Shown: positions 26,384-48,789 of the stretch, one piece after another
Position numbering within the stretch: the stretch's first letter is position 1
How the letters are laid out: each line of letters begins with the position of its first letter
Assembly: GCA_016198905.1 (NCBI GenBank)
Contig: JACQHR010000032.1
Coordinates: forward strand, 74,390-138,389
DNA: 64,000 nt
Origin: Candidatus Omnitrophota bacterium
Lineage (GTDB): Bacteria; Omnitrophota; Gorgyraeia; Aquiviventales; Aquiviventaceae
Direction: 5' to 3'
Made by a program: the position numbers and the translations under genes
The notes under the pieces: generated by a model
What the model saw: the letters and a program-made list of their open reading frames with translations, nothing else
Databases searched by the model: none
What the model was told of the DNA's origin: nothing

Positions 26384-26456
26384 GACGCGGGGCAGGAAAA
26401 ACCAAATTTGGTATTGAGGATTTTCCCACGCCCCGTGCCCCCGTCTCCCGCCCCTT
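26366..26456 (+). repeat. E12: palindromic element at the giant-protein / deacetylase junction
   Basis: Left AAGGGGCAAGGGGCATGAGACGCGGGGCAGG. The loop has a GGAAAA...TTTTCC clamp and an internal CCAAATTTGG palindrome. Right CACGCCCCGTGCCCCCGTCTCCCGCCCCTT. Confidence 0.85.
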
Positions 26457-26476
26457 AGTCTAGAGGAGTCTAATCG

Positions 26477-27265: not shown

Positions 27266-27341
27266 AGGGAGCGTGGGGCGTGGGGCGTGGGGCGTGGGAA
27301 AACCGCTTTTCCCTCGCCCCCCATCTCCTGTCCCTTGCCCC
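27266..27341 (+). repeat. E13: palindromic element at the deacetylase / GT2 junction
   Basis: Left AGGGA + (GCGTGGG)x4. Inner clamp GGGAAAA-CCGC-TTTTCCC (27296-27313). Right CTCGCCCCCCATCTCCTGTCCCTTGCCCC, which is close to the reverse complement of the E10-type G-arm. Confidence 0.85.
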
Positions 27342-27349
27342 AATCTGTG

Positions 27350-28483: not shown

Positions 28484-28679
28484 CGCACCGTCGAACCTTT
28501 CGATTGTTCCAAGCTCCGCTGCGCGCCCGACCGCCATCTAGCCAATCGATCTGCTGAACTTGTTTGTGTGACTGGATATTAGGTACACTCTTCTTAGTTG
28601 TGGTAACTCTCTGTATAAACTACCACTCACAAAAATCCACAGAATCGAAGCAGAAGATGGCTTTCCTTGGAGGGCAGGG

Positions 28680-31313: not shown

Positions 31314-31663
31314 GACTATTTGATCTATCGCAAGAACGGACGTATCAGGATTTGACGACGCAGACTGGCCTCACGTTACGTTTCCTCCAGAAGGAAATCC
31401 CTTCCTCGCAGCGATCCAGCCCGCACGCAGCCAGCTCAACTATCCGGTAGCAGCGCTAGCAACACCGTACGACTTTAGTTAAGGACAGCACAACCGTCCA
31501 TCGGTCTTCTCAGCGCGTCAACGGCTCAGGTATACTTCAGGTGATTTCCAATTCAAAAGGCCAGTACGGCCCCCACGGATATAACGGTGGGGCAGGCCGC
31601 GGACGCTGACTGAACTGAATCGCGCCGCAGTATCGCGCGAGACGCAGACTTCAGATACAGAGA

Positions 31664-31698
31664 GCCGGGCTACCGATTACGGTAGCTCGGCATTTTTT
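31664..31698 (+). terminator. Rho-independent terminator
   Basis: 12-bp stem GCCGGGCTACCG / CGGTAGCTCGGC (one G-U pair), ATTA tetraloop, then ATTTTTTG. Confidence 0.7.
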
Positions 31699-31769
31699 GT
31701 TGCGCGGCATCACATGCAAATGTAGCGGCACCTTCCGGGCATGCCGGCGGGTCAGAGAAGGGGGCGCAG

Positions 31770-35362: not shown

Positions 35363-35413
35363 ATGTGGAAACAAGGGTTGGTGAGTTTCATGTCACAACA
35401 CAAGGAGGGGTTG

Positions 35414-36343
35414 ATGAAGCGGTACGCAGTAGCAGTGATTGGAATCCTGCTGAGCCTCGGAGTCGTGGCGACTCCAGCGTCAGCAGCGGTTTTTGTCGCC
35501 GGTGCGGACAACCAGGTTTTCTTCGTGAACTTCGAGAACCTCTATGACTCCACAGGAAAGTGGCTCAACCCGTTTACGGCACCTGTCCCGGGACAGATCT
35601 TGTCCGGGATCATTGGGTTGAACGGTCTTCGTGTCAACAATGTCGACTCCGACTTCGATGACACGACGTTTCAGTTGAGCGGTGTCTTCGCGCAGGAAAT
35701 CGTGTCGATTGACGCCATGACTGGCACGTTAACACTTGGCGTTCCGACAGTGACCACCTACTACAAGGACTTGGACTTGAGTGGTGGGATCACCGCAGGG
35801 GATGACGTGTATAGCACGGGTCTTGCTCCGGGGTCTGAAATGTTCGCCTTCTACCTGCAGCAGAGCCCGGATCCTGTTACCACACTCGAATCCGACGGTA
35901 CGATGCTGGACGACGTGACCAAGGCGACGGACGGTAGCCTATTCCTGACCCTCGGATTCACCGACCCAGGTGCTGGTGTGGACCCTGGATACGCGTTCAC
36001 GGCCTTATTTCCGCCTCCCCTGTTTCCGGCCGGGCTGTCTTTTGCCGGTTTGAACTTGATCCAGAACAACTCAGGGTTCACCTTTGCGGGACTGGACAAC
36101 CCATTTGAGAACGTCTTCAATGGGACCCTTCAGCAGGTTGTGTACCAGACGTCATTTAACCTGAACCCGCCTGGTTTGAACAACCCGAATCCTGATCCAG
36201 GAACTTCGCCCTGGGAGTTCATCAGCAATGACCCGGCACTGATCCACCCTGACACTGTCATTCCTGAGCCGTCCTCGATGTGGTTGCTCGGGATGGGTCT
36301 GGGTAGCTTCGGCGTGTTCCGCCGCAAGAAGTTCTTGGTGTAA
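35414..36343 (+). CDS. PEP-CTERM sorting-domain secreted protein
   Basis: AAGGAGGGG RBS. Signal peptide MKRYAVAVIGILLSLGVVATPASA. C-terminus VIPEPSSMWLLGMGLGSFGVFRRKKFLV (PEP motif + TM + basic tail). Confidence 0.9.
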   Translation: MKRYAVAVIGILLSLGVVATPASAAVFVAGADNQVFFVNFENLYDSTGKWLNPFTAPVPGQILSGIIGLNGLRVNNVDSDFDDTTFQLSGVFAQEIVSIDAMTGTLTLGVPTVTTYYKDLDLSGGITAGDDVYSTGLAPGSEMFAFYLQQSPDPVTTLESDGTMLDDVTKATDGSLFLTLGFTDPGAGVDPGYAFTALFPPPLFPAGLSFAGLNLIQNNSGFTFAGLDNPFENVFNGTLQQVVYQTSFNLNPPGLNNPNPDPGTSPWEFISNDPALIHPDTVIPEPSSMWLLGMGLGSFGVFRRKKFLV

Positions 36344-36417: not shown

Positions 36418-36631
36418 GCCCAGCATGTGGACATGACGAGGAGGTGCAAGTCCTCTGAGGGAGCAGGTCGCAGCGACCTCAAGCGAACCGCAAGGCGACG
36501 ACCGTGAGGTCGGCGCTGAAAGAAGCGGGGAGCGAAGCCGCGCGTCGACGAACAGGAACCGGATACGAGGCGAAGCCGGCCAGCGAATTCTGGGGACAAT
36601 ACGGAATTCTGTTTTGGGGCGGTCGCTTGAG

Positions 36632-37192
36632 CTAGGGACGTGAACGGAAACAGGCGTTGAGGAAGTCCAACAGCTCCGGCTGAGCGAAGGCCTTCGACAA
36701 CTCGCGGACAGTGCGCGTGAGATATCGGCGGTCAAGCCGCGGTCCCTGGTGGCGGACAACCGCTCGCACGTCTTCGCGGTCTTTGGGGCGATTGGAAATG
36801 ATCTTATGGATGATGAGATCCTCGGGGCGGCAGACGCGTACCTGGTGACCGGCGACCTGCTCGAGGGTCGCGCGGGCAATGGCTTTGTGTTCGTAGGGCA
36901 GTGTCGCCCATACCAAGTCGATGCGCACGCCCCCGCGGGTTTCCACTGGCAAGACGTGAGTATCACGAAGGAAGTCGAGCGGCTTCCGAGGAACGATGCG
37001 GAACGCCCGGCGGAGGTCCTGGATCAACGCCGGCCACGCCGTCTCCTCCACTAGCAGGGCAGCATCGACGTCCAGCGTCGCTCGCGGCTCACCCCACACC
37101 AGATTGGCAACGCCCCCGATCACCATGTAGGGCACGCGGTGCTCTTCGAGGAATCTCGCGAGCGCACCCACCGCCTGCTCCAGGGCATTCAT
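36632..37192 (-). CDS. Nucleotidyltransferase-fold protein (putative toxin partner of the RHH protein)
   Basis: YMVIGGVANLVWGEPRATLDVDAALLV fits the minimal NTase pattern G[GS]-x9-13-DxD. ATGA overlap with the upstream RHH gene. Confidence 0.55.
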   Translation of the reverse strand: MNALEQAVGALARFLEEHRVPYMVIGGVANLVWGEPRATLDVDAALLVEETAWPALIQDLRRAFRIVPRKPLDFLRDTHVLPVETRGGVRIDLVWATLPYEHKAIARATLEQVAGHQVRVCRPEDLIIHKIISNRPKDREDVRAVVRHQGPRLDRRYLTRTVRELSKAFAQPELLDFLNACFRSRP

Positions 37193-37491
37193 AGATCGAG
37201 GCCTTGAAGGCGCTCGTGGGTCTTCCGTACACCCCTGAACATCCGGCGGAGCTCGGCTTCGGTGGGCTGGCGGGTCGCCGCACGCTGTCGGTATACATCG
37301 GCCAGCTCCCCTACGCGCGCGAGGCGCTCAGACGCGCCTGCGGCAATCGGCCGGTCACGTTGGATGAGATACAGGCGCAGCGCCTCCCGCACCAGCTCGC
37401 TTTTGGTCCGGTGTTCCTCATCGGCCAACTGCGCCGCCAGCCGGCTCAATTCCGGTGGCATCGAGATCGTCCAGGTCCGCGTCGCCCGCAT
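37189..37491 (-). CDS. Ribbon-helix-helix (CopG-family) DNA-binding protein, putative antitoxin
   Basis: WTISMPPELSRLAAQLADEEHRTKSELVREALRLYL is an RHH pattern. Confidence 0.7.
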   Translation of the reverse strand: MRATRTWTISMPPELSRLAAQLADEEHRTKSELVREALRLYLIQRDRPIAAGASERLARVGELADVYRQRAATRQPTEAELRRMFRGVRKTHERLQGLDL

Positions 37492-37518
37492 GTACCCTCC
37501 ACCTATTGATGTATTACT

Positions 37519-37539
37519 TTATCTTACTAAGTAAGATAA
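37519..37539 (-). promoter_or_regulatory. Perfect palindrome, candidate RHH operator
   Basis: TTATCTTAC-TAA-GTAAGATAA lies 28 nt upstream of the RHH start on the minus strand, in AT-rich sequence. Confidence 0.4.
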
Positions 37540-37604
37540 CATATTTCCTCCTCCCCGTCAACGAAATCGACAGAAGGCTCAGAGGGGTGAAGGAAAAATA
37601 CAAC

Positions 37605-38948
37605 TTAGAAGAAGTAGGCGAGTTCGGTGTAGAGGCGGCTGTTGTCGTTGAAGCGGCCGAACAGCCCTGAGGAATTGCCCTGAAAGACATCCGCACCAAC
37701 CCGCACTTGCAGGCTGTTGGTGGCTTTCCAGGTGAGTTGTGGCCGGTAGAGCAGATCCTCTTTGCCAATGCCGGCGATAAGCAGGATCTCCGGCTCAAGC
37801 TTGCCATCCAGCAGGTCGGTCTTGAGCCGCATGGAGAGATGCGTGCGCAGGGCTTCCTCATTCGCCAGAAACCCCTCAAAGTTGCCGATGACGCGCTGCA
37901 TGAGCTGTACGTTGGCCTCGATGTGGCCAAACGACCGGTCCACCCCGAGCAGATAATCGACGACCGGTCGATGGACCACGCCATCAGGATCTTGCGTATC
38001 AAACGTGGAGAAAAAAGCGTGCGGGTTGACCACGAGCTCGCCCTTGAGCACAATGTCCTCCAAGTCCTTCGAGAAGCTCACTCCTAAGAAGTTCGCCCGC
38101 CGATACTCCGGGGCAAACGTGTAGACCCCGCCGTTAATCGTCCGAAAGAGCACCGGGAACTTGTCCCACGTATAAAAGTAAAATGCGCTCACATCCCACC
38201 CATCCAACAAGTAGCCGACCCGCCCCCCAACTTCGCTATTGCTGAAGCTCGCAGGCGGTTTCGAGGGATCGGTGAATGAGGCCGAGCGGCCTTCCGGGAC
38301 GGGCAGCGGGAAGACGAACTCCGAACCACTGACGCCGAGCTTGTGAAACGCGCGCACCGGCAGCCACACGAATTCACCGTGCGCGTTGCCCTCGGAGGCC
38401 TCGACATCAAGGGCCCACTGCGGGATGCGAATCAAATCAAAATCCGGCAGGACGTACTCTCGCAGATTTTTCGCGTTGACGACGTCGGCGAAAAACAAGC
38501 CCACCGCATCGCCCCACACGATCTGCTGCTTGCCAAGCCGCACATCGAAGGGGCCGTTCGAGTAGTCCAGATACGTTTCGCGGATCTCTCCGACGAGCTG
38601 TTGGCTATGCTTGGCGGGGCTCGAGAAGTTATCCGTCGCCGCGTACACCGGATCGTAGTACGCGCGCTGGGTGGCTCGGTAGCTTAACGCGTCGGTGAGA
38701 TGGCCGCGTTCGGTGAGGAGCACGCCATTTCTGGTTTTGGTGAATTCGCGTGGATGTCCGACACGGTAGGCGGTTTCTTGGAAGAGTTTGCCGCTCAGTC
38801 CCAACCGCTGTTTGATGGAGATGAGCGTCGAAGCGATTACGGCCTCGCGCGGCGATGGTGCTCTCGTCGTCTCATCCGCAGGCTCGGCAAAGGCGGCCAC
38901 TGAACCGAAGACTAACGAGCACACAAGCCACCACGGAGTCGCACACAT
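37605..38948 (-). CDS. Outer-membrane beta-barrel protein (unknown family)
   Basis: Signal peptide MCATPWWLVCSLVFGSVAAFA. Alternating-hydrophobicity strands. C-terminal ...LYTELAYFF (terminal Phe, an OMP signature). Confidence 0.6.
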   Translation of the reverse strand: MCATPWWLVCSLVFGSVAAFAEPADETTRAPSPREAVIASTLISIKQRLGLSGKLFQETAYRVGHPREFTKTRNGVLLTERGHLTDALSYRATQRAYYDPVYAATDNFSSPAKHSQQLVGEIRETYLDYSNGPFDVRLGKQQIVWGDAVGLFFADVVNAKNLREYVLPDFDLIRIPQWALDVEASEGNAHGEFVWLPVRAFHKLGVSGSEFVFPLPVPEGRSASFTDPSKPPASFSNSEVGGRVGYLLDGWDVSAFYFYTWDKFPVLFRTINGGVYTFAPEYRRANFLGVSFSKDLEDIVLKGELVVNPHAFFSTFDTQDPDGVVHRPVVDYLLGVDRSFGHIEANVQLMQRVIGNFEGFLANEEALRTHLSMRLKTDLLDGKLEPEILLIAGIGKEDLLYRPQLTWKATNSLQVRVGADVFQGNSSGLFGRFNDNSRLYTELAYFF

Positions 38949-38957
38949 GCGCCTATC

Positions 38958-39725
38958 TTACTCCATAAACTTCTTCATGTAATCCTTTGTGAAGTATTTC
39001 TCGGGCAGCGGGGTCACCGTCATCTGATCATACGTGATCGTGGAGCGCTGATCCTTCACCGTCGCGTCATGCATGACGAGTTGTGAGGGCCGCAGCATCC
39101 CGCCCAGCAGCCGGTAGTCTTCATAGGAACAGGTTTTGAGGAGGCGTCCAGACACGGCGTAAAACTCCGCGCGAGCAGGCGCAAACGTGTCGTGGTCCAC
39201 CCACAGCACGACTCGGGCATACGTGACATCCGGTGCCTTCGCTTTCAAGTCGAGCACGTCGTAGGTGCGATCCTCGAGGCGCTCTTGCTTCGTGAGCGCG
39301 GGAGTGTAGTCCCCGGAGAAATTAGCCCGCGCGATGTCGCCGTTTGCCACGTCGCCCATCAGCCGTTCACGCAACGAAATGCGCAGGGGTTTCGAAATCG
39401 TCGGGAGAAAGACCCACAGATCCTTGCCGCGCATGAGCATGACGCGCCCCGTATCGATCGGAGGGCTCAGGGTTTGCACGACGGCGCGGTCGCGCCCCTT
39501 CACGAGCACGCGGTACGTGGCCGTCGTCGACGAGCCGTGCGGCTTCACGCTCGTGATGGTCGCCATCACGATGTAGTCCATCTGGGGATTTCTCACCTCG
39601 TCGGCTTTCTCGAGAATCGCCTCAGCGGTGAGGGACGGCTCCTCGGCGGCGACGGGAGAGACGGCACGAGCGCACAGGAGCGTGATCGCGACGCTCGCGA
39701 AGAGCTCACGCATGACGCAGCGCAT
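38958..39725 (-). CDS. LolA-like outer-membrane lipoprotein-sorting / lipid-carrier protein
   Basis: Signal peptide, then ILEKADEVRNPQMDY..., LMRGKDLWVFLP and ISLRERLMG, as in the LolA-like (DUF4367/LolA_like) family. Confidence 0.6.
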   Translation of the reverse strand: MRCVMRELFASVAITLLCARAVSPVAAEEPSLTAEAILEKADEVRNPQMDYIVMATITSVKPHGSSTTATYRVLVKGRDRAVVQTLSPPIDTGRVMLMRGKDLWVFLPTISKPLRISLRERLMGDVANGDIARANFSGDYTPALTKQERLEDRTYDVLDLKAKAPDVTYARVVLWVDHDTFAPARAEFYAVSGRLLKTCSYEDYRLLGGMLRPSQLVMHDATVKDQRSTITYDQMTVTPLPEKYFTKDYMKKFME

Positions 39726-40968
39726 CGGCCACGCTCAGGCGCGAGGCCTGATAGGCCGGGAAGAACGAGGAGATGAGCGACGTGATGAGCGAGAGGACGA
39801 AGGAAAAGACGAGCACCGACGGCACGATGACCGGCTCCGAGATCCACGACATCGACGCCCCCGGCGGAGGCGGCATCGGGATGCCGACGTGCCGGATGAG
39901 CAGCGTGATCGCCGTCCCAATGGCGATCCCCAGGCACCCGCCGATCAAGCCTAACGTCGCGCCCTCCAACAGGAAGAGCTGCCACACTCCTTGGCGTGTG
40001 GTGCCCAGCGCCATGATCGTGCCGATCTCGCTCGTGCGCTCCACGACCGCCATGTTCATCGTGTTGTAGATGCTGAGGATGACAATGGTCGCGACGACCG
40101 CCTTGAGGATCAAGAACATCCGCCAGAGAAACGCCTTCGACTTGCCGTACTCGTCATTCAATTCCTGCCACGCTTTGACTTCGAGCGATAGGTGGCGTTG
40201 GACGAAGAGCTCTCTGAGGGTCAGCTTGACGCGATCGGTATCCGACGTGCGTCGGAGCATCACCACGAGCGACTGCACCGACTCGGTTTGCAGCAGCTGC
40301 TGCGTGGTGCCAAGGGGCAGACGCACGGCGTAATCGTCAAACGCTTTGGACGTGGTATAAAAGATACCCGCCACCGTCGCATCGATGGCGTTGATGGAGC
40401 CTGCAATGGTGTGCGAGACGAGGATGAGTCCATCGCCGGGTTTCGCGTCGATACCTTTGGCGAGCCCTCGGCCGAGGATGATGTGATACGGCTCATTCGC
40501 GTTGAGCGGCTCGCCGGATTCGATGATCGCGCCACCCAGTAGGGCCACGTTGCGCCCGGCCGCGGAGCGGTCGGTCAGACGGACCGAGGGCTCGTAGTCC
40601 GGCTCGACCCCCTGCCCAAAACACGAGACCGTATTCTCGCCCGTGCTCAACAGTCCGGAAAACTGCAGCCGGCGCGCAACCGAAACCACCCCAGGGACCT
40701 TCTTGACCAGCGCGATGATATCATCCGGATGATCGATGAGATAAGAGAACGGACGGGCGCTGCCTTTGTCGAAGAATCCCCGCGTGTAAATTTGTAGGTG
40801 CCCGGTGTGCGCCTTGATGTAGCTTTCCTGCATGCGGTACAGGATGTCCTCAAAGAATCCGCCGACGAAGATGATCGCCGTGCAGCCAAAGGCGATTGCC
40901 GCGAGCGTGATCACCGAGCGCGTGCGGTGCCTGAAGACGTTGCGGATCGCCAGACGCAGGGTGATCAT
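39706..40968 (-). CDS. ABC transporter permease, FtsX/MacB/LolCE type
   Basis: N-terminal TM, a ~230-aa periplasmic domain, and a C-terminal FtsX 3-TM bundle (VERTSEIGTIMALGTTRQGVWQLFLLEG). Confidence 0.85.
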   Translation of the reverse strand: MITLRLAIRNVFRHRTRSVITLAAIAFGCTAIIFVGGFFEDILYRMQESYIKAHTGHLQIYTRGFFDKGSARPFSYLIDHPDDIIALVKKVPGVVSVARRLQFSGLLSTGENTVSCFGQGVEPDYEPSVRLTDRSAAGRNVALLGGAIIESGEPLNANEPYHIILGRGLAKGIDAKPGDGLILVSHTIAGSINAIDATVAGIFYTTSKAFDDYAVRLPLGTTQQLLQTESVQSLVVMLRRTSDTDRVKLTLRELFVQRHLSLEVKAWQELNDEYGKSKAFLWRMFLILKAVVATIVILSIYNTMNMAVVERTSEIGTIMALGTTRQGVWQLFLLEGATLGLIGGCLGIAIGTAITLLIRHVGIPMPPPPGASMSWISEPVIVPSVLVFSFVLSLITSLISSFFPAYQASRLSVADALRHA

Positions 40969-41645
40969 GCGGCACGCGCGAGTTGGCCGTCGGAGAGCAT
41001 GACGATGCGGTTGGCCATCTGCATGACTTTTTGGTCATGCGTCGAGAAGATAAACGTGGTGCCTCGTTGCTGGTTGATGGATTTCATCAGCGCCAGGATG
41101 TCCTGGCCGGTCTTGTGGTCGAGGTTGGCGGTGGGTTCGTCAGCGAGAATGATCAGCGGTTGGGTCACGATGGCGCGGGCAATGGCCACGCGCTGGCGCT
41201 GGCCGCCGCTCAACTCTAAGGGTTTGTGGCGCTCGAACGTGGCAAGTCCGACGCTGGCGAGCGCTTCTTGGGCGTGTCGGCGTCGTTCGCGCGACGAGAT
41301 ATCGCGCGTCGCTAAGGGATACTCGACGTTTTCGAGTGCCGTGAGGACCGGCAACAGGTTGAAATTTTGGAAGATGAACCCAAGCTTGACGGCGCGGATG
41401 ACGGCGAGCTCATCCGAGGAGCGCGTGGCGATGTCGACCTGGTCGATTCGCACCGTGCCGGACGTTGGCATCTCGATGCAGCCGATGAGATTCAACAGCG
41501 TCGTTTTGCCACTACCTGAGGGGCCAGCAATGGCGAGAAATTCGCCGCGTTTGACGACGAGGTCCACGCCTTTCAGGGCAGGCACCCGGACCTTCCCGAG
41601 CCAGTATTCCTTGGCGGCTTGCGCGACTTCAACGAGCGGCGTCAA
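40965..41645 (-). CDS. ABC transporter ATP-binding protein, LolD/MacB type
   Basis: GPSGSGKTTLLN (Walker A), LSGGQRQRVAIARA (signature), ILADEPTANLD (Walker B). ATGA overlap with the permease gene. Confidence 0.9.
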   Translation of the reverse strand: MTPLVEVAQAAKEYWLGKVRVPALKGVDLVVKRGEFLAIAGPSGSGKTTLLNLIGCIEMPTSGTVRIDQVDIATRSSDELAVIRAVKLGFIFQNFNLLPVLTALENVEYPLATRDISSRERRRHAQEALASVGLATFERHKPLELSGGQRQRVAIARAIVTQPLIILADEPTANLDHKTGQDILALMKSINQQRGTTFIFSTHDQKVMQMANRIVMLSDGQLARAA

Positions 41646-41662
41646 CAGATTCCACCCATGTG

Positions 41663-42736
41663 TTAGCTCTCCAGACTCAAAACGTCTTCAACCGGCCGAC
41701 GGGGCGTGCGCGCCGTCGGGGGTGCCGCGAATCCAATCCTAAACAGCATGATCGGTGTGCGGTGCGCGAGCGCAGGAAACACCCTCGCCAATTGCGCTCC
41801 TGTGTCTTCGACGAGCGCGCGATGACGGGGCGAGAGCCCTTGACCCTCCGCAAGCCGGCAGCGCAAGAGCAAGCAGATCATGCCGGTGATGGGTTGAAAC
41901 GCGAGTCCTTGCAACGTCGACGTCAGCCACAACCGCTCGAGCACTTCACCGGCGTGGACAAAATCCTCCGGCCGCTGCCCCTCCACCGTCAACAGCCCAA
42001 GCGCGGCAGAGCGTTGATACGTCCGTTGCGTGCGAAGCGGCAGCAAGCGCGTGACACCGCACGCCGCAAGCGTGTGCGCGACAGGCCACGAGCCGAGCAG
42101 GTGAAAGCCCGGCCGCTCAACGGGATGGAGTTCGAGTGATCCGATGGGCATGCCGTCGCCGCTTCCTTGCGGCGTCCATCGCAGCCATCGGTAGAGACCA
42201 TCATGCAGCGCGCGATTCTCGAAGAGAATTTGGTCGTTGCGGGCAGCCAGCGCGGCGGCAGTTCGTTTAGCTTGATTAGTCTCAACGAGCTCGAGCGACG
42301 TGCCAGGGCCGTTGCGGGCGATCGCCAGCAGTGCATCGCGAAGGGCTGCGGTGAGCGGCGTGCGCTGATACGGCCGCCGATTCGCGCAACGCGCTTCCAG
42401 GGCTGACATCAGAGGATCATGGTGCGGCGTCATAGGCTGAAACGAGATGCGTGCGGCATGAGACTCTCCATGTCCACGAGGGAACAGCTCCGCAGAAACG
42501 TCATACCCGCGAGACCGGGCCACGAGGCGCATGTTGGTGATGGTCGCCCCCAACGCGATCCATGAGGCGGTATGCTGCACGTCGTAGAGAGACTCGGCTC
42601 GCTCATAGACCAACATGAGATCAAGCTCCCGCTCGTTCCAGACGAAACGCCACGGCTGACAATTATCGCCCGAGGGAGCGAGCAGGCCCGCGCGGACGAT
42701 CTGCGCGACGATGCTGCGTTCAAGGTGAGGCGCCAT
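41663..42736 (-). CDS. Nitroreductase-family protein (double-length)
   Basis: IVRAGLLAPSGDNCQPWRFVW is the nitroreductase N-terminal signature. At 357 aa it suggests a duplicated or extended fold. Confidence 0.65.
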   Translation of the reverse strand: MAPHLERSIVAQIVRAGLLAPSGDNCQPWRFVWNERELDLMLVYERAESLYDVQHTASWIALGATITNMRLVARSRGYDVSAELFPRGHGESHAARISFQPMTPHHDPLMSALEARCANRRPYQRTPLTAALRDALLAIARNGPGTSLELVETNQAKRTAAALAARNDQILFENRALHDGLYRWLRWTPQGSGDGMPIGSLELHPVERPGFHLLGSWPVAHTLAACGVTRLLPLRTQRTYQRSAALGLLTVEGQRPEDFVHAGEVLERLWLTSTLQGLAFQPITGMICLLLRCRLAEGQGLSPRHRALVEDTGAQLARVFPALAHRTPIMLFRIGFAAPPTARTPRRPVEDVLSLES

Positions 42737-43613
42737 GCCCGAACGTGCGCCGGATATACCACAGTTTCAATTGCTGCCACGGATGACGATTGCCGCCCCA
42801 CAGGGTGCCGATACGATAGCGCAACCGATAAGGATCAAATTGGGCGTAGCGAGGCACGCCCAGCGGCGCGCGGCGTTTGAGGATCAGGTTCATGACCTCT
42901 GCGGCGACGACGCCGGCGCACAAGTTGATCGCGATGCTCGAGGAGGGGCCGCGATGTTCTTTCAAGTTGACGCTGGCGGGATCGAGGTAGGGCAGGTGCA
43001 ATGCGGCGGGTGCAAGGCCGACCGCAAAGCGCGCCAGTTGCTCAAACGCGCTCATCGAATCATCGATGGCCATGAACCGATCAAAGCTTGGGCCATCAGG
43101 CATGAAGACCAACAAGGCTGCGCTGAATCCCATCGGCCCGCATGTCACGATGGGAAGACGCTTGGCGTGCGCGCGCTGAAAGAGCAGCCGCCGCGCCTCT
43201 ATGCAGAAGAAATCCAGTCCATCGACGACGACGTCGCATCCTGTGAGAAACTCGTCGATGTTGTTGGCATGAATGCCCTCAGGGAAGCTTCGGATCGATG
43301 CGGCGGGGTTGATGGTCTTAGCCATGTCTGCCATCACCGTGGTCTTCGGTTGCCCGATGGTCTGGAGCGTTGCGCCGGGCTGTCGGTTGAAGTTTCTGAG
43401 CTCGAACGTGTCGTGATCCGCAATCGTGAAACGCTCGAACCCTAGGCGAGTTAACGCGAGGAGATGGGCCCCGCCAACGCCACCCATGCCAGGAATGGCG
43501 ACGGTGGCTTGCCGGAGCCGTTGTTGTTCGTCAGAGGTGAGGAGGCCACGATTCGCCGCAAAGGCTTCTTCATAACTGAACGGTGCAGTCATCGGCATTG
43601 GAACAGGTGCCAT
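42720..43613 (-). CDS. ThiF/MoeB/HesA-family E1-like adenylyltransferase
   Basis: VAIPGMGGVGGAHLLALTRLGFERFTIADHDTFELRNFNRQ (GxGxxG Rossmann + NxNRQ). Confidence 0.85.
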   Translation of the reverse strand: MAPVPMPMTAPFSYEEAFAANRGLLTSDEQQRLRQATVAIPGMGGVGGAHLLALTRLGFERFTIADHDTFELRNFNRQPGATLQTIGQPKTTVMADMAKTINPAASIRSFPEGIHANNIDEFLTGCDVVVDGLDFFCIEARRLLFQRAHAKRLPIVTCGPMGFSAALLVFMPDGPSFDRFMAIDDSMSAFEQLARFAVGLAPAALHLPYLDPASVNLKEHRGPSSSIAINLCAGVVAAEVMNLILKRRAPLGVPRYAQFDPYRLRYRIGTLWGGNRHPWQQLKLWYIRRTFGHGASP

Positions 43614-43671
43614 TATAGCACAGCACCGTGGCGCACATGGCGACGAGAGCGACCGGAAAGGCGCGAAGGAC

Positions 43672-44559
43672 TTACGACTGCGGAAGCATCAATCCAAACT
43701 GGGGCGGGCTGGTGTGCGCAGCATTGAGGATATCCGCGAACGGATATGTGGGATAGCAGCTTTTGATGTGCGCCAGTTCAGTCGGGCTGGCCGAGGCGAA
43801 GACAGGCAGCGTATGAACGAACAGCGTTTCCAAGTCGCTTGGTGAAAACTTCAGCTTCTCTGCGAACGGGGCCGGTGAAGGTTTCTTGCCATAAAAGAGT
43901 TGGTAGGCCGCATGCGAGGCGGCGTGCTGCTCAGTGTCCCGGATGTTCAGGTGTCTGGCCACGGAAGGATTGCTGTTGGCGGCCGTATATGTTTTAAGCC
44001 CCCCCAATGGTTGGAGCTGGAGAAATTCGTAAAGAATCTGATGCTTCGGGTTGAAGCATGCAACCAGTTCATCAGTCGGGGTCGAGCTACGGAGATAGTC
44101 GAACATGATTTTGAACAATCTCAGCGTGAAGAGCAGCTTCTTCGCGTGGAATAGGGTGAATACCTTTTGGCCGAAGAGCCGGCCATCTAAGGCCAGCATG
44201 GACACTTCAGCCACCCGAAGGCCTTGACGACGTAGTACGTCTACCTCGGTCTTGTACGCCTCATCCATGGGTAAGCCTAGAGGGGAATCTTCGACGACGG
44301 AGACCGTTCCAATAATACCCAAGCGACGGTGCACGGCAATGAAGGTCGCCGTTGTGGGAAGCGCATGGTACAAAGACAGCTTCAGCCGCGCAGGATTCGG
44401 TTTGACGTAGTTGCGTTTCAGGTACTCGGTATAGACAAGCTGACTGGCAATCTTGAACTCCTCAACGGTTTTCACGATGCGGAACTCGACCGGACGAAGA
44501 AATTGAGGGACCGTGTCATAGAGTCGGCCAAGCAGTGAAATCGAAGGACCGGTGGTCAT
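43672..44559 (-). CDS. N-acyl amino acid synthase-like acyltransferase (FeeM/NasY-like; PEP-CTERM/exosortase-associated type)
   Basis: FRIVKTVEEFKIASQLVYTEYLKRNYV...GTVSVVEDSPLGLPMDE...VAEVSMLAL resembles the LuxI-like GNAT N-acyl amino acid synthases. Assignment is from pattern memory only. Confidence 0.55.
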   Translation of the reverse strand: MTTGPSISLLGRLYDTVPQFLRPVEFRIVKTVEEFKIASQLVYTEYLKRNYVKPNPARLKLSLYHALPTTATFIAVHRRLGIIGTVSVVEDSPLGLPMDEAYKTEVDVLRRQGLRVAEVSMLALDGRLFGQKVFTLFHAKKLLFTLRLFKIMFDYLRSSTPTDELVACFNPKHQILYEFLQLQPLGGLKTYTAANSNPSVARHLNIRDTEQHAASHAAYQLFYGKKPSPAPFAEKLKFSPSDLETLFVHTLPVFASASPTELAHIKSCYPTYPFADILNAAHTSPPQFGLMLPQS

Positions 44560-44561
44560 AA

Positions 44562-44990
44562 TTACTGCAAATACCTCTTCAGCAGCTCTGCCGCAACGAA
44601 ATGGCAGTACTGAGCAAAGGTTGTTTCATTGCGGGCAGGAGAAAATGTCACCCCGACGGCGTAGTCTTTACCTCCACGCTTCTGACGACACCAACCGATC
44701 TGCCCAAAGAGCATGAGCGGTTCAGGTCGATCCAGCATGGCGAGGACAATCTGACACGGACTGGCCACAGCGATCATTTGTGAGATGGAGAACTCGATGC
44801 CAGCGCCACTGATCGTCATTGTCTTGCTGGAGCCGGTAATCTGTTCATCGCCGGATCGAATAGTGTAGGACAATGTGAGGGTGAGCGGCAGGCGTTCCGC
44901 TGCTCGCTGATCGACGGACAAGACATGCATTTCCGTCGCGTCCTGCCGAATGGCGACGTCATGCTGCACTGTGGTTTCTCGTTTCCGCAT
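44562..44990 (-). CDS. PilZ-domain (c-di-GMP-binding) protein
   Basis: QRAAER (RxxxR) followed by TISGAGIEF (D/N-x-S-x-x-G-like). 142 aa. First gene of the minus-strand operon. Confidence 0.65.
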   Translation of the reverse strand: MRKRETTVQHDVAIRQDATEMHVLSVDQRAAERLPLTLTLSYTIRSGDEQITGSSKTMTISGAGIEFSISQMIAVASPCQIVLAMLDRPEPLMLFGQIGWCRQKRGGKDYAVGVTFSPARNETTFAQYCHFVAAELLKRYLQ

Positions 44991-45344
44991 TCAGCACTCG
45001 CTCGGTTCGTTAATCTGTTTAAACAACCAGACGAACTATACCATATAGAGCACGATATTATCAAGATTTCAACTACTTAAATAATCATTACACTTTTGAT
45101 GTATCTTTTTGAAATTCAGAGTGTTGTTTTATGTACGTTTCGATGGCTCATTTCACCACTCTACACGTTGTAACTGCCCTGATTTTTGGACACTATGTCT
45201 AAAAAAGCAGACATCGGTATGATGTTCTGGATTTGTGGTACAGCGCATAGTGTTTATATAGGTATTTTTATAGTTATTTATCGTAACATATTTAACAGTA
45301 GCATGTTATGAGCAGTACGGATAATGTAGCCACTTACTAGGAGT

Positions 45345-45360
45345 TGGTACAGAACCTGCT
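45345..45360 (+). promoter_or_regulatory. Sigma-54 (-24/-12) promoter candidate
   Basis: TGGTACagaacCTGCT has GG-N10-GC spacing. It lies in a 430-nt AT-rich divergent intergenic region, 65 nt upstream of ATG 45425. Confidence 0.6.
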
Positions 45361-45424
45361 CTTAATCTCTCTCAAATAATTGGAATTTCCTTGGCCTAAA
45401 TAGCCTAAGGAGGAAAGACAAGGC

Positions 45425-45892
45425 ATGCGAAACACATCTCGGTGTCTGCTCATTGGATTGGCGATCTCCGTACAACTTCTAACATCAGGTTGTGGGAGCG
45501 GTATCGGGGGGTTCTCCAGCCTTTTTGGCGCGAAGGCGTTCGCGGATCTGCTGGATTCCTTAAACGGCGGCTCAGGGGGGTCCGGTTCCGAAGGAGATCT
45601 GAACATCGCATCCATCACGCAGAACTTTTTTGGGAGCGACAGCGGGGTGTTCAATGAGCTCTACGATGAGTTGGGAGATTGGGATGATGAGGATCTCTCT
45701 TCATTGTTTGGAGACTCTGGCCATCCGGGAAGCGGTAATGGTAATAATGAGGGTTCGACGTCAACAACGGTCGTCGAGCAACAAGTTGCCAGACTGCACA
45801 ACCCTGAACCAGCCAGCCTCGCCTTGTTCGGCAGCGGCTTAACGGGTGTCGCCTGCCTTCGACGGCGCAAGACGCGCAAGACATCGTCCTGA
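45425..45892 (+). CDS. Small acidic PEP-CTERM protein with lipoprotein-type signal peptide
   Basis: N-terminus MRNTSRCLLIGLAISVQLLTSGCGSG (Cys after the hydrophobic core). C-terminus NPEPASLALFGSGLTGVACLRRRKTRKTSS. Confidence 0.85.
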   Translation: MRNTSRCLLIGLAISVQLLTSGCGSGIGGFSSLFGAKAFADLLDSLNGGSGGSGSEGDLNIASITQNFFGSDSGVFNELYDELGDWDDEDLSSLFGDSGHPGSGNGNNEGSTSTTVVEQQVARLHNPEPASLALFGSGLTGVACLRRRKTRKTSS

Positions 45893-46004: not shown

Positions 46005-46904
46005 ATGCGAGCACTCTTACTGGCAGTTCGCGAGACAGCACAATTGTTTGGCAGGCAGCGCATATTATGGCTGCCATTTGTGTGTGTGACATTCGTTGAA
46101 GCGCTCTTCGTAGGACTTGTGTGGCTTGCCCCGCACGCCCCGTTTTCCGACGTCCTAGCTCCCCCGATCCGATTCTTTTTTGGAGATCGCGTCCTGCATT
46201 ATCCGGCCCATCTGTGGTTTCTCTACCATGTGACCCGACATGCCTACATCGCCGCCACGGTGCTCGTCGGAGCATTTATGACCGGGGTCGCCTGCGCCAT
46301 GGTCGGTCAGATCCACACCGGAGCGATGTTGTCGTTTCGTGACGTGCTCGTTAATCGGCAAGTGCATTACGGCCGCATGCTGCTGGTATGGATCATCAGC
46401 TGGGGAATCGCGACGAGCATCGCGGAAGGATCAGCCCGCGTTGCGCCGAAAAGCCTTCTGGGACTGCTCGTTGTCGTCGGCATTACCGTGGTACTTCAGG
46501 CGTTGTTTGTCTACGCGATTCCTGCGGCGGTGTTTCAGCGCGCAAAGTGGTGGAAAGCCCTGCTCTCCAGCGTGCGAGAAACAGCCCGATATCCTCTCAG
46601 CACCTTAGCTGTTGTGACGCCTCCCACGCTTCTTGTGATTGGGCTCGCAGTCCTCGTGCCGCCCGTGAAAGTGGCGGAATGGATGGGACGCACGCAGCCC
46701 GAATGGGCGGTGGCTTGCGTGGCAGTTCGGCTCATCGTGTGGATGGTGGCCGATGCGCTATTGACCGTCGCGACGGCACACCTGTGGTGGACGCATCGAG
46801 CGGTTTCGCGTGCCGCGAATCCCGCGGTTCAGGTCGCTACAGCGCGTCATCCGCACAAAGCGGCGCAGCAGCCACCAACGCAGAAACACCCTCTTGTCGC
46901 CTAA
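46005..46904 (+). CDS. Polytopic membrane protein, unknown function
   Basis: About 6 hydrophobic segments and no recognised motif. It precedes the TPR lipoprotein and the exosortase. Confidence 0.5.
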   Translation: MRALLLAVRETAQLFGRQRILWLPFVCVTFVEALFVGLVWLAPHAPFSDVLAPPIRFFFGDRVLHYPAHLWFLYHVTRHAYIAATVLVGAFMTGVACAMVGQIHTGAMLSFRDVLVNRQVHYGRMLLVWIISWGIATSIAEGSARVAPKSLLGLLVVVGITVVLQALFVYAIPAAVFQRAKWWKALLSSVRETARYPLSTLAVVTPPTLLVIGLAVLVPPVKVAEWMGRTQPEWAVACVAVRLIVWMVADALLTVATAHLWWTHRAVSRAANPAVQVATARHPHKAAQQPPTQKHPLVA

Positions 46905-46944
46905 CGCGTCACATCGATCACACAAACCTGCAGCGGAGTTGGTG

Positions 46945-47907
46945 ATGTTGAGAATGAGTAGAACACGCACGAGCGACACGAACGTGCGATTCTGCGTTGT
47001 TTCATGCGCCTCGATCCTGTCTGCAGTGGTCATCCTGACTGGTTGTAGCGCCAACTACAACGGCGAGCGCCTCTTTTGGAAGGCGCAACAATTGCAAGCG
47101 GCTATTATCAAGGATCCTGCCAAAGCGTCGCCTGCGCAGTTTGCTACCGCGGTGAATGCGTTTGACCAGGTTATCCAGAAGGTGCCAGGGACGATGTGGG
47201 CGGCGCGAGCCCAGGTATCCATCGGGTCACTGTACGCGATGGAGCGACAGTATGAGAAAGCGAGAGCGGCCTATGCGCTCGTCCTCCAAAATTACAATCA
47301 ATATAAGCAGTTCTGCTTGGCGGCCCGTTTGGCGACAGCGAGAACGTATGAACTGGAGCAAAATGGACCGGAAGCGATCGCGGTCTACAAGGATATCTCC
47401 GAGTACTACCCCTGGAGCGTGCCCGGGCTAGAATCCCCGCTGCATATCGCCCGGATGTATGAGCAGCGCAAGGATACCGAAGCAGCGACACAGGCCTACC
47501 AGCGCGCGGTCCGTATGTATACCAGGCTCCTTCCAGATGCGCCGACTCCTGAATTGACGATGCAGATCAAAGGGTATCTGACCTTGGCCTACCAGCGGCT
47601 CGGCCAGTGGGAGGACGCAGTGAATTTGCTCCAGGAACTTGCTGCGGTCAAGAGCGGCGTCAACAAACCGCTTGTGCTGCTCACGTTGGCGTCAATCTAT
47701 CAAACGAAGCTCAAAGAGACGCAGAAAGCTCAAACTGTGTACACACAGCTCGTTCAGGAGTTTCCAACGAATCCATTTGCGAAAGCCGCGAAAGCGCAGC
47801 TCGAACAGTTGGGCGCTCCGGTGCCGGAGACCGCTGCGGAGACGTCTGCGGTCCAGACACCAGCGATTCCGGCCACACCTGTGAAGGGGCCGGCTGGAGG
47901 CCGATAA
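46945..47907 (+). CDS. TPR-repeat lipoprotein
   Basis: Lipobox AVVILTGC. Repeated A-x-Y..A/L helical-pair patterns (e.g. AQVSIGSLYAMERQYEKARAAYALVLQNY). Start placed at internal ATG 46945. Confidence 0.7.
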   Translation: MLRMSRTRTSDTNVRFCVVSCASILSAVVILTGCSANYNGERLFWKAQQLQAAIIKDPAKASPAQFATAVNAFDQVIQKVPGTMWAARAQVSIGSLYAMERQYEKARAAYALVLQNYNQYKQFCLAARLATARTYELEQNGPEAIAVYKDISEYYPWSVPGLESPLHIARMYEQRKDTEAATQAYQRAVRMYTRLLPDAPTPELTMQIKGYLTLAYQRLGQWEDAVNLLQELAAVKSGVNKPLVLLTLASIYQTKLKETQKAQTVYTQLVQEFPTNPFAKAAKAQLEQLGAPVPETAAETSAVQTPAIPATPVKGPAGGR

Positions 47908-47910
47908 CGC

Positions 47911-48789
47911 ATGGGAGTTTTGCCTCGTTCAATCCAACCCACCTCTCGCCAGCTGATATTTAGTCTCTTTTACGCGGCCTGCTTCATGGCGCTCTTCTGG
48001 CCGACATTTACCTGGCTGGCCGAGCGGTTTGATGCCCACGACTCCTTCTATTCGCACGGCTGGCTCATTCCATTTGCCAGCGCGTGGCTGATTTGGCAGC
48101 GTCGCGTTCAATGGGAGGCGTGTCCCCGAGCCGCCAGCTATCGCGGGTTAGCGCTGCTCGCACCGTCACTCCTCATCCATCTCGTGGCGACGCGGCTTGA
48201 CCTGCATTTCGCATCGGGATTTGCGATGTTGGGCGCGATCTGGGGACTGGTGTGGACGTGTTGGGGTTGGCGGATGTTATGGACCTTGCGGTTTCCGATG
48301 CTGTTTCTCCTCTTCATGGTGCCGCTGCCAGGCGTCTTGCTCATTTCCATCAGCTTCAAGATGAAAATGATGGCGGCGACTCTCGCGACTCACGCGCTGC
48401 ACCTTATGCAGATTCCCGCGGAACGAGCCGGCTCAACCATCAACGTCCCCGGAGTCTCGGTCGTGGTCGATGATACCTGCAGCGGCCTCCGCTCGCTCAT
48501 CAGCCTGATCGCGCTGTCGGTGTTTTGGACGTCGTGTATGCCGGCCGCCTCGCGTCAGTGGCAGAAGCTGGCCATCGTGGCCGCGTCGATACCTATTGCG
48601 TTGGCGGCGAACATGGTGCGGATTCTTGCTCTGGTCTTGCTTGCGGCCATCTACGGATCGCACGCCGCTGAAGGCTACTTGCACTACGGCTCTGGGATTG
48701 TGGTGTTTGTCGTCGCACTGGCCATCCTCGCGTGGATGACCCGATGGATTCAACAATGGTCACGTCCCTCACTCGGCCTCAACCAATAG
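47911..48789 (+). CDS. Exosortase (EpsH/Xrt family)
   Basis: W..D..FYSHGWLIPF, VVDDTCSGLRSLISL (catalytic Cys context), ANMVRI and HYGSG. 8 or more TM segments. Confidence 0.9.
   Translation: MGVLPRSIQPTSRQLIFSLFYAACFMALFWPTFTWLAERFDAHDSFYSHGWLIPFASAWLIWQRRVQWEACPRAASYRGLALLAPSLLIHLVATRLDLHFASGFAMLGAIWGLVWTCWGWRMLWTLRFPMLFLLFMVPLPGVLLISISFKMKMMAATLATHALHLMQIPAERAGSTINVPGVSVVVDDTCSGLRSLISLIALSVFWTSCMPAASRQWQKLAIVAASIPIALAANMVRILALVLLAAIYGSHAAEGYLHYGSGIVVFVVALAILAWMTRWIQQWSRPSLGLNQ

Follow-up and report, generated by a model that had tools for sequence, protein, structure and literature searches.

The OxzAB system of Pseudoalteromonas rubra (OxzA/OxzB) combines an N-acyltransferase of the FeeM/acyl-homoserine lactone (AHL)-synthase fold with a ThiF-nitroreductase di-domain enzyme and yields tyrazolones and phenazolones (10.1101/2020.06.11.147165). 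In Mycobacterium tuberculosis, TyzA N-acylates Tyr or Phe, the ThiF homologue TyzB performs an ATP-dependent cyclisation and TyzC, a flavin oxidase of the nitroreductase superfamily, performs an O2-dependent desaturation (PMC10404671). [quoted passage not shown] Here, we describe an operon in which members of these three enzyme families are joined to a PilZ-domain protein and a predicted four-gene export system. It occupies positions 37605-44990 of a 64,000-nt stretch of DNA, referred to below as the window, from a Candidatus Omnitrophota bacterium (GenBank assembly GCA_016198905.1, contig JACQHR010000032.1, positions 74,390 to 138,389 of the forward strand).

What bacterial acyl-oxazolones and N-acyl-dehydro-amino acids do for the cell, and where in it they end up, are named as open questions in the literature (PMC10404671; PMC12856293; PMC12479983), and why NAS accompany exosortase systems is likewise an open question. 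NAS genes cluster with exosortase systems (Craig, Cherry & Brady 2011, as reported in PMC7293339), and a knockout of an exosortase-associated NAS, ExoAT of Methylomonas LW13, loses a polysaccharide band (PMC11072679). The stieleriacine cluster of Stieleria holds a PEP-CTERM gene and adjoins exopolysaccharide (EPS) genes (PMC7293339; PMC12479983). Nas343 and Nas354, from a biofilm metagenome, are NAS-PilZ fusions whose product is N-acyl-tyrosine (PMC4897644). On the side of export, DUF1302 and LolA-like proteins together with a resistance-nodulation-division (RND) pump have been tied to monoterpene efflux and fatty-ester phenotypes (PMC6394551; 10.1101/2020.07.04.188060).

We consider it probable that the operon is a self-contained module that makes an N-acyl amino-acid-derived lipid, places that lipid in the envelope and is wired into a PEP-CTERM/exosortase/EPS matrix programme. 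On the most economical reading, the product would be a surface-active or signalling acyl lipid, responsive to cyclic di-GMP (c-di-GMP) and part of the matrix programme. A first-pass annotation, made by a model from the letters alone, had proposed a pathway that makes, modifies and exports an N-acyl amino acid lipid and is headed by a c-di-GMP receptor, and both the protein families and the synteny appear to bear this out, the export part through synteny. The same annotation held the product and partners of the acyltransferase to be undefined, a view that the literature has overtaken: NAS, ThiF and the flavin-dependent oxidase (FDO) form a characterised acyl-oxazolone/N-acyl-2,3-dehydro-amino-acid pathway (10.1101/2020.06.11.147165; PMC10404671; PMC12856293; PMC12479983), and the N-acyl-tyrosine NAS-PilZ fusion is published (PMC4897644). 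The eight genes, in the order of transcription, and the candidate promoter are as follows.

44562-44990, minus strand: PilZ-domain protein of 142 aa (PF07238), predicted c-di-GMP receptor
43672-44559, minus strand: FeeM-like NAS (PF21926)
42720-43613, minus strand: ThiF-like adenylating enzyme (PF00899; NF006077/PRK08223), predicted oxazolone-forming cyclase
41663-42736, minus strand: FDO, a double nitroreductase-fold protein of 357 aa (Rv1355c-family and Acg-family models)
40965-41645, minus strand: ATP-binding cassette (ABC) ATPase of the MacB/LolD/DevA group (PF00005), TTG start
39706-40968, minus strand: type VII ABC permease (PF12704 MacB_PCD and PF02687 FtsX)
38958-39725, minus strand: LolA-like periplasmic protein with a signal peptide (PF17131 / TP_0789-like), predicted lipid chaperone
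37605-38948, minus strand: DUF1302 outer-membrane protein of 447 aa (PF06980), predicted beta-barrel exit or insertion site
45035-45064, minus strand: candidate sigma-70-type promoter of the operon (TTGATA, 18 nt, TG-TATAGT; consensus match only)

The open reading frame (ORF) read-out shows that the eight minus-strand ORFs fill 37605-44990 exactly where the first-pass annotation had placed them and in the order that it gave. Each has a significant family match, and the eight family identities and intact catalytic motifs are established by homology and structure prediction. The close spacing that had been described is confirmed by the junction lengths, which, computed from the longest ORFs and read from PilZ to DUF1302, comprise gaps of 2 nt (PilZ/NAS) and 58 nt (NAS/ThiF), an overlap of 17 nt (ThiF/FDO), a gap of 17 nt (FDO/ATPase), overlaps of 4 nt (ATPase/permease) and 20 nt (permease/LolA-like) and a gap of 9 nt (LolA-like/DUF1302). 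The 4-nt overlap is the ATGA at 40965-40968, in which the permease ATG overlaps the ATPase stop codon. The PilZ stop codon lies 2 nt ahead of the NAS ATG, and the two genes appear to be translationally coupled. Terminator-like sites inside the cluster are not in excess (7 found, 7.2 expected from shuffles). The candidate sigma-70 site, 45 nt upstream of the PilZ ATG, is the top scorer in a scan of 37000-45500 (10/12, extended -10). It lies within the 434-nt, AT-rich (35-46% GC) intergenic region between the operon and a divergent PEP-CTERM gene, and this leader has no Rfam riboswitch match, for c-di-GMP or otherwise, at E<=1.

The PilZ and acyltransferase genes had been described as more AT-rich than their neighbours, and this holds to a moderate degree: their GC contents are 0.548 and 0.541, whereas the remaining six genes lie at 0.59-0.64 and the window as a whole at 0.613. 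The GC content at third codon positions (GC3) climbs in three steps along the operon, from 0.62-0.65 to 0.70 and then to 0.75-0.82. These steps line up with the three functional modules of the operon and are consistent with its being an assembly of three modules.

In the proposed pathway, the FeeM-type synthase would move a fatty acyl group from acyl carrier protein or coenzyme A (acyl-ACP or acyl-CoA) onto an amino acid, at its amino group; the characterised systems all suggest, by analogy, that this amino acid is most likely Tyr, Phe or Trp. The ThiF-like enzyme would adenylate the free carboxylate, with the amide oxygen closing a 5(4H)-oxazolone ring, and the double nitroreductase-fold flavoenzyme would strip the C-alpha and C-beta hydrogens and so leave an unsaturated acyl-oxazolone; hydrolysis of this compound may then yield an N-acyl-2,3-dehydro-amino acid of the kind represented by the stieleriacines. 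The uncharged lipid would enter the inner membrane and be extracted on the periplasmic side by a homodimeric MacB/Lol-like type VII ABC transporter. ABC transporters of type VII work on substrates at the periplasmic side, and a neutral oxazolone could plausibly reach the periplasmic leaflet unaided. The LolA-like chaperone would then cross the periplasm with the lipid, and the predicted DUF1302 barrel would insert or release it at the outer membrane. The PilZ protein, coupled to the synthase, would make synthesis responsive to c-di-GMP. We infer the amino acid, the acyl chain, the order of the second and third steps, export of the product by the transporter, its destination and its regulation by PilZ.

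The assignment of the acyltransferase to the FeeM-like enzymes, already suggested in the first-pass annotation, is strongly supported by both profile and fold. The protein, which is 100% identical to NCBI protein HY352_05335, matches PF21926 at 101.9 bits (cut-off 27, E 4e-29), and its family profile matches the FeeM structure (PDB 2G0B) at E 8e-31. E118, invariant in 54 homologues, aligns with the catalytic Glu of FeeM in the LAEV motif; the role of this residue is known from FeeM Glu95 and from Glu103 of Nas354, through the E103A variant (PMC4897644). The AlphaFold2 model has a mean predicted local distance difference test (pLDDT) score of 90.9, and its six best Foldseek matches in the PDB are FeeM chains (E 2e-13, target TM 0.79-0.87), with LasI and MesI ranking below. 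The model thus points to a GNAT/AHL-synthase-like fold of the FeeM type. The two profiles that had been put forward for this enzyme were rejected: TIGR03694 gives no match even at E<=10, and PF13444 none at E<=0.01. Among NCBIfam models only PRK14852 was matched. The window NAS therefore appears to belong to a separate, PilZ-paired FeeM-type clade rather than to TIGR03694.

Residues ~211-295 of the NAS (window 43672-43926) form a conserved helical C-terminal extension of ~85 residues that is predicted at pLDDT 92-98 and is absent from FeeM; within it, Y269 is invariant and P270 near-invariant. In the published NAS-PilZ fusions, this position is taken by a linker of ~80 residues whose fold is unknown (PMC4897644), and the extension might be a docking site for PilZ. 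No NAS-PilZ fusion was found among the longer NAS homologues scanned, so the link to such fusions rests on PMC4897644. The PilZ protein itself matches PF07238 at 33.3 bits (cut-off 22.5). Its RxxxR motif is present as RAAER, with both Arg residues invariant in 33 homologues; the second motif reads TISGAG, and relatives have the canonical [DN]-x-S-G-x-G.

The ThiF-like protein matches PF00899 at E 2e-45 and scores 367.7 bits on the equivalog NF006077/PRK08223 (cut-off 266), with residues 9-290 covering positions 2-284 of the 296 in the model. Two fusion models, PRK14851 and PRK14852, match it through their ThiF parts, at 329 and 264 bits, respectively. The Gly-rich loop GMGGVGG and the adenylation residues NFNRQ (NxxRQ), K90 and D131 align with those of TcdA and ThiF and are invariant in 46 homologues, D131 being the Mg-binding Asp position, equivalent to D217 of TrzS. 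The CxxC zinc motifs of protein-activating ThiF/MoeB are absent from the window protein. The PDB entries closest to it are those of TcdA, the cyclodehydratase of t6A, an ATP-dependent, oxazolone-forming enzyme (PMC12596934). The true start is possibly at Met8 (43592). After other Omnitrophota, the nearest relatives are planctomycetal, at 50-56% identity. A further homologue, 54% identical to the window protein, was seen in a phage-like context (L055, 8001-8855), on a 239-kb contig where genes for DNA polymerase III alpha and an RNA ligase accompany it, together with numerous small ORFs that carry no annotation.

For the FDO, PF00881 matches the N-terminal part only. The protein scores 217 bits on the Rv1355c (TrzS)-family model, over the FDO part only (positions 372-719), and the Acg-family model (FDO-B) aligns over the full length at 173 bits, below its cut-off of 199. 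It also scores 194 bits on PRK14851 and matches the Acg structure 2YMV at E 3e-16. The functions of its relatives TyzC and TrzS are known (PMC10404671; PMC12856293). The NAS, ThiF and FDO genes are consecutive in the window, and PRK14852, a model of 989 positions, aligns in turn with NAS (31-201), ThiF (313-588) and FDO (617-800). Because this one model spans all three, the three domains exist fused in other organisms.

In the export half, the ABC ATPase (PF00005, E 3.5e-34) has intact motifs (Walker A GPSGSGKT, signature LSGGQ and Walker B ILADEPT). Its top NCBIfam scores are LolD 220, DarD 212, DevA 209 and MacB 202 bits, all under the cut-offs. The permease (PF12704, E 4e-18; PF02687, E 3e-15) has a first transmembrane helix, a MacB-like periplasmic core and a three-helix FtsX C-terminal domain, and a homodimer is implied by the single permease gene. 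LolCDE orthology was tried and rejected, with 220 against 307.75 bits for TIGR02211 (LolD) and 103 against 362.45 bits for TIGR02212 (lolCE). The transporter is thus best classified, from its profile scores, as a MacB/Lol-like type VII ABC system and not as a LolCDE orthologue. The Lol-like route of the first-pass annotation stands in this form, with its LolA-like carrier and DUF1302 partner; the labels 'LolD-type' and 'LolCE-type' were too specific. The operon contains no gene for a membrane fusion protein (MFP), a TolC-like outer-membrane efflux protein (OEP) or LolB.

The LolA-like protein matches PF17131 at 150.9 bits (cut-off 30, E 4e-44) and not the canonical LolA family. Its signal peptide ends SPVAA|EE, and residues 31-252 align with the solved LolA-superfamily protein NE2245 (3BUU) at 226 bits and E 3.4e-66. 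It belongs to a large family, in which 1306 relatives were found at E<=1e-10; the NAS clade has 129 matches. The last protein matches PF06980 (DUF1302) at 51.6 bits (cut-off 23.2, E 1e-13), a match that covers only model positions 98-405 of 541, and has a signal-peptide-like N-terminus with a hydrophobic segment ending AAFA|EP. Its C-terminal F447 is invariant in 20 homologues, 18 of which match DUF1302. A single-sequence AlphaFold2 model was unusable (pLDDT 30.6), and a profile search of the PDB found no relatives. No member of DUF1302 has a solved structure; a published model gives the family a barrel of 18 strands and predicts binding to the LolA-like DUF1329 (PMC13499233), and by analogy the window protein is predicted to be a beta-barrel. 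From synteny, we infer that the NAS product is exported by the ABC/LolA-like/DUF1302 route.

Conservation of the operon was examined in a NAS-anchored survey of 47 non-redundant loci from assemblies and GTDB genomes, and the co-conservation of the genes, which had been suggested as a check on the proposal, is established by comparative genomics. L007, L011 and L056 show the full window gene order as well, and so does L010 as far as its truncated contig extends; L007 and L011 each have a duplicated NAS gene. The four contigs that share the eight-gene operon are from Omnitrophota where the source was identified, and the combination of the operon's three modules thus appears to belong to that phylum. 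A PilZ gene lies immediately upstream of NAS in 31 of the 34 non-redundant loci whose NAS has at least 35% identity. These 34 loci come from Omnitrophota, Scalindua, other Planctomycetota, a bin labelled Patescibacteria and one Elusimicrobiota locus (L024), which is without a PilZ gene. L001, L012 and L013 have the PilZ-NAS pair alone.

LolA-like and/or DUF1302 genes adjoin the PilZ-NAS pair in 16 of the 31 loci. The pump that accompanies them varies: an ABC plus FtsX pump is found in the window, L002, L003, L021, L033, L036 and L039, and an MMPL/RND pump in L016 and L038, and also in L063, L067 and L068. L016 and L038 have ThiF, LolA-like and DUF1302 genes with the MMPL/RND pump and without FDO, and L017 has MMPL and ThiF, with neither LolA-like nor DUF1302 detected. 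On this gene content, the LolA-like/DUF1302 pair appears to stay while the inner-membrane pump is swapped. The MMPL/RND genes that replace the ABC ATPase and permease are at 13898-16279 in L016, 2873-5197 in L017 and 4238-6502 in L038; an MMPL gene beside ThiF parallels mmpL9 beside the M. tuberculosis tyz genes (PMC10404671). In a Pirellulales metagenome-assembled genome (L054), the genes are interleaved as NAS-NAS-MacB-ABC-MFP-FDO-ThiF, next to an OEP gene. In L006, a close relative, a transposase gene (HTH_38/rve, 14188-15087) follows FDO at the position of the exporter genes, which suggests that the export module there was lost or displaced by an insertion sequence element.

The tailoring enzymes vary as well. 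L002, L003, L021 and L033 have an AMP-ligase and a B12-radical-SAM protein instead of ThiF and FDO, with the same ABC-FtsX-LolA-like-DUF1302 operon. This variant was seen in low-GC Omnitrophota (e.g. L003, 14882-17951), where an AMP-ligase/carrier-protein gene adjoins PilZ-NAS. The two enzymes may be an anaerobic substitute for the O2-dependent FDO chemistry, or may perform a C-methylation.

A wider view is given by a ThiF-anchored metagenome scan of 80 loci. NAS was found in 30 of the 80, FDO in 28, PilZ in 2, any pump in 14 and LolA-like or DUF1302 in 9. An ORF with a strict PEP-CTERM motif was present in 33 of the 80 loci (27 of the 48 that are at least 7 kb long), and in 28 of the 80 a PEP-CTERM ORF lay <=3 kb from ThiF or FDO. 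Across all ORFs of the FeeM- and ThiF-anchored loci, the PEP-CTERM regular expression gave 78 matches, compared with 0-2 for shuffled C-termini. No one conserved PEP-CTERM partner family was found beside ThiF/FDO; the neighbours fall into many small groups, none of which is matched by the two window PEP-CTERM proteins. Taken across these loci, the general core appears to be NAS, ThiF and FDO beside PEP-CTERM genes, with PilZ and the LolA-like/DUF1302 exporter as lineage-restricted additions.

The window operon has such a setting, and its proposed tie to the exosortase system is borne out by its position in a PEP-CTERM/exosortase locus with EpsH and EpsI. A divergent PEP-CTERM gene with a sigma-54-type promoter, also part of the first-pass annotation, was recovered:

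45425-45892, plus strand: PEP-CTERM gene divergent from the operon and first of the exosortase block (PF07589, E 4e-5)
45345-45360, plus strand: sigma-54-type promoter-like element (TGGTAC-N5-CTGCT), 65 nt upstream of the divergent PEP-CTERM gene

The element has two mismatches to the strict consensus and was found by a relaxed GG-N10-GC search; a one-mismatch sigma-54 scan missed it for that reason. The pattern TGGTAY-N5-YTGCT is kept at the same position and in the same orientation in eight related loci (L001, L006, L008, L009, L010, L012, L013 and L016), and the window carries rpoN as well as the gene of a sigma-54-dependent response regulator. After the PEP-CTERM gene, the exosortase block continues with a membrane protein, a TPR protein, EpsH (47911-48789; Exosortase_EpsH, E 1e-63), EpsI (DUF3485/EpsI, E 2.5e-26), a PAS histidine kinase, a sigma-54 response regulator and PocR-GAF. 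EpsH and EpsI lie within 10 kb, as do two PEP-CTERM genes, rpoN and a PrsK/PrsR-like pair, and the island also has a Bac_transf priming transferase.

Several observations weigh against the reading of the operon as one pathway from synthesis to the outer membrane. FDO is absent from L016, L031, L032 and L034, where ThiF is kept, so desaturation may not follow the ThiF step in every case. L051 and L053 carry the exporter block with ThiF and FDO and have no NAS gene within 9 kb, and in L052 the exporter block has a patatin gene instead of ThiF; since the exporter can thus occur without a nearby NAS, or with patatin, its cargo could be broader or different. Nor is the exporter universal, with LolA-like/DUF1302 in 9/80 and any pump in 14/80 ThiF-anchored loci. 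Additionally, the window PilZ has Thr where the family has Asp/Asn in the second c-di-GMP motif, and TyzC is O2-dependent and the window host a groundwater Omnitrophota bacterium, an organism known as a metagenome-assembled genome only. In L051 (7111-13408) and L053 (7102-13392), the ABC-FtsX-LolA-like-DUF1302-ThiF genes with a convergent FDO are flanked by two PEP-CTERM genes and adjoin a GAF-kinase and a sigma-54 regulator.

These exporter loci, with NAS not within 9 kb in L051 and L053 and a patatin-like lipase and no ThiF in L052, also speak for an alternative that we regard as rather unlikely, namely that the ABC/LolA-like/DUF1302 module carries another cargo (an envelope lipid, a lipid-linked matrix component or hydrophobic compounds) and shares only the exosortase/EPS island with the enzymes, the acyl-oxazolone staying cell-associated or leaving unaided. 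Such a cargo would suit a LolA-like family about ten times the size of the NAS clade (1306 vs 129 matches), the GC3 of the export genes (0.75-0.82, against 0.62-0.70 for the biosynthetic genes), which suggests separate origins, and the finding of tyrazolones mainly in cell pellets of M. tuberculosis and Rhodococcus (PMC10404671). However, L051 and L053 retain ThiF and FDO, and the export module therefore follows the pathway and not the island. The pairing also comes back in several phyla and in three arrangements (a same-strand operon, a convergent one, and one with MMPL for ABC), the window ABC gene begins 17 nt past the FDO stop with no terminator signal, and in Pirellulales a MacB-type pump is interleaved between NAS and FDO/ThiF. 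That the last four genes are a housekeeping Lol lipoprotein-sorting pathway merely abutting the biosynthetic cluster seems hardly credible. The best NCBIfam names of the ATPase and permease are indeed LolD and LolCE, and the third protein is labelled 'outer membrane lipoprotein-sorting protein' in public records, but the scores (220 vs 308 and 103 vs 362) are far under the equivalog cut-offs, the carrier is PF17131 and not canonical LolA, LolB is absent and the partner is a DUF1302 protein. The module is also missing from the loci of many related genomes, and MMPL replaces the pump in relatives while the LolA-like/DUF1302 pair is kept, a swap that is incompatible with an essential lipoprotein pathway.

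A different objection concerns the enzymes: ThiF and the nitroreductase-fold protein could act on a peptide or protein carboxylate, as in a ribosomally synthesised and post-translationally modified peptide (RiPP)-like pathway or at a PEP-CTERM C-terminus, with NAS making a separate lipid. The substrates of characterised ThiF-like enzymes are indeed nearly all proteins, peptides or tRNA (PMC12596934), RiPP azolines are oxidised by dehydrogenases of the nitroreductase fold (10.1101/2020.06.11.147165), some ThiF and FDO loci are without a nearby NAS gene, and PEP-CTERM genes lie <=3 kb from ThiF/FDO in 28/80 metagenome loci. We nevertheless judge this very improbable. PRK14852 unites NAS, ThiF and FDO in a single polypeptide, the FDO scores best on the model of the TrzS/Rv1355c family, whose substrate is N-acyl-tryptophan (PMC12856293), and the window ThiF is without zinc-binding cysteines or other partner-protein features. 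The operon contains no small precursor-peptide ORF, YcaO or ThiS/MoaD-like gene. As for PEP-CTERM proteins, their processing is in the membrane or periplasm, ThiF and FDO are without signal peptides, and the adjacent PEP-CTERM proteins form no single conserved family.

A more speculative extension of the acyl-lipid pathway, which we hold to be a long shot, is that the acyl-oxazolone is not the end product but a reactive, membrane-permeant acyl donor or Michael acceptor. Sent to the outer membrane by the LolA-like and DUF1302 proteins, it would covalently lipidate or tether PEP-CTERM proteins already processed by the exosortase, or exopolysaccharide, with PilZ and c-di-GMP gating the supply. 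If true, this would provide the long-sought chemical link between NAS and PEP-CTERM/exosortase sorting, and a first cargo for the 'dark' DUF1302 and PF17131 envelope proteins.

Under the c-di-GMP-responsive acyl-lipid reading that we prefer, one operon next to PEP-CTERM genes unites a second-messenger input, three biosynthetic enzymes and an inner-to-outer-membrane route. It predicts that synthesis depends on c-di-GMP, that the LolA-like carrier binds the lipid and that the product is found at the outer membrane, and it hints at a defined cargo for DUF1302 and PF17131, both of them large families whose function is not known. The chemistry is already known; the regulatory and export wiring, as synteny suggests it, would be new. 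We found no published description of the conserved split, translationally coupled PilZ-NAS pair, of a LolA-like/DUF1302 conduit with an interchangeable inner-membrane pump (ABC, MMPL or, in Pirellulales, MacAB-TolC type) on a NAS-ThiF-FDO pathway, of the tailoring swap between ThiF plus FDO and B12-radical-SAM plus AMP-ligase, or of a quantitative ThiF-PEP-CTERM association.

Some features of the surrounding DNA were also recorded. Directly downstream of the DUF1302 gene, a ribbon-helix-helix antitoxin gene (37189-37491, minus strand) overlaps by 4 nt the gene of an AbiEii/DUF2204-type nucleotidyltransferase (36632-37192, minus strand); this toxin-antitoxin pair lies in a GC-rich patch (0.64-0.68) and has its own sigma-70-like site (37561-37533). 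Between the pair and a PEP-CTERM gene (35363-36343) is a group II intron D1-D4 fragment (36498-36612, plus strand; RF02001, 44 bits, above the gathering score), which is the sole Rfam match across the 64-kb window and has no evident ORF for an intron-encoded protein. The pair and the intron fragment look like a mobile-element insertion that parts the operon from the next PEP-CTERM gene. On the other side, in the exosortase block (46005-47907, plus strand), the longest ORF of the membrane protein (299 aa, 46005-46904) runs 95 nt into that of the TPR protein (46810-47907, GTG start), so the TPR start is probably further downstream; the two genes keep their order beside EpsH in relatives. Three large secreted-type proteins are encoded upstream of the EPS genes (20642-33872, plus strand): one of 1913 aa with metallophosphatase, PcRGLX-like and GH123 domains, one of 877 aa with BNR/sortilin repeats and an M64-peptidase-like one of 700 aa with Big_7 domains. 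A polysaccharide deacetylase gene and a GT2 gene lie between them.

Set beside the described systems, the biosynthetic part of the operon is like OxzAB, TyzACB and TrzAS in having the NAS, ThiF and FDO families adjacent, with ThiF and FDO as separate genes as in tyz. The M. tuberculosis loci, too, have a lipid transporter (mmpL9, by the tyz genes) or c-di-GMP turnover genes (by trzAS) adjacent (PMC10404671; PMC12856293). Unlike the Oxz, Tyz and Trz systems, the window trio is from Omnitrophota, shares one operon with PilZ and a four-gene export system inside an exosortase locus, and has a NAS bearing the helical C-terminal extension of ~85 residues. With the N-acyl-dehydrotyrosine clusters of Planctomycetota and Proteobacteria it shares a NasY-type NAS, ThiF and a nitroreductase; those clusters, in contrast, have at most a MacAB-MFP-OEP-type pump and methyltransferases, with no PilZ and no LolA-like/DUF1302 pair, and free acids, not oxazolones, were isolated from them. 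Like the TIGR03694-type NAS, the window enzyme is a predicted long-chain NAS encoded inside a PEP-CTERM/exosortase/EPS locus, although it gives no TIGR03694 match. As in Nas343 and Nas354, where ~80 residues of unknown fold follow the NAS domain, it has an extension after that domain, whereas PilZ, which is the C-terminal domain of those proteins, is in the window a separate, upstream, coupled gene.

The export part is like LolCDE-LolA-LolB and MacAB-TolC in pairing an ATPase with an FtsX/MacB_PCD permease for periplasmic-leaflet substrates and in having a LolA-fold carrier. It differs from both in its sub-cut-off scores, its one permease gene, the absence of MFP, TolC and LolB and its DUF1302 outer-membrane partner. 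The combination of a DUF1302 protein, a LolA-superfamily protein and an inner-membrane pump is shared with AmeABCD of Castellaniella and PP_0765/0766 of Pseudomonas putida, which are implicated in the handling of hydrophobic compounds or lipids (PMC6394551; 10.1101/2020.07.04.188060; PMC13499233). Unlike in those systems, the window carrier is PF17131 and not DUF1329, and the pump is an ABC transporter (MMPL in some relatives). Because the DUF1302/LolA-like module is here embedded in a defined biosynthetic operon, a concrete cargo for it is suggested.

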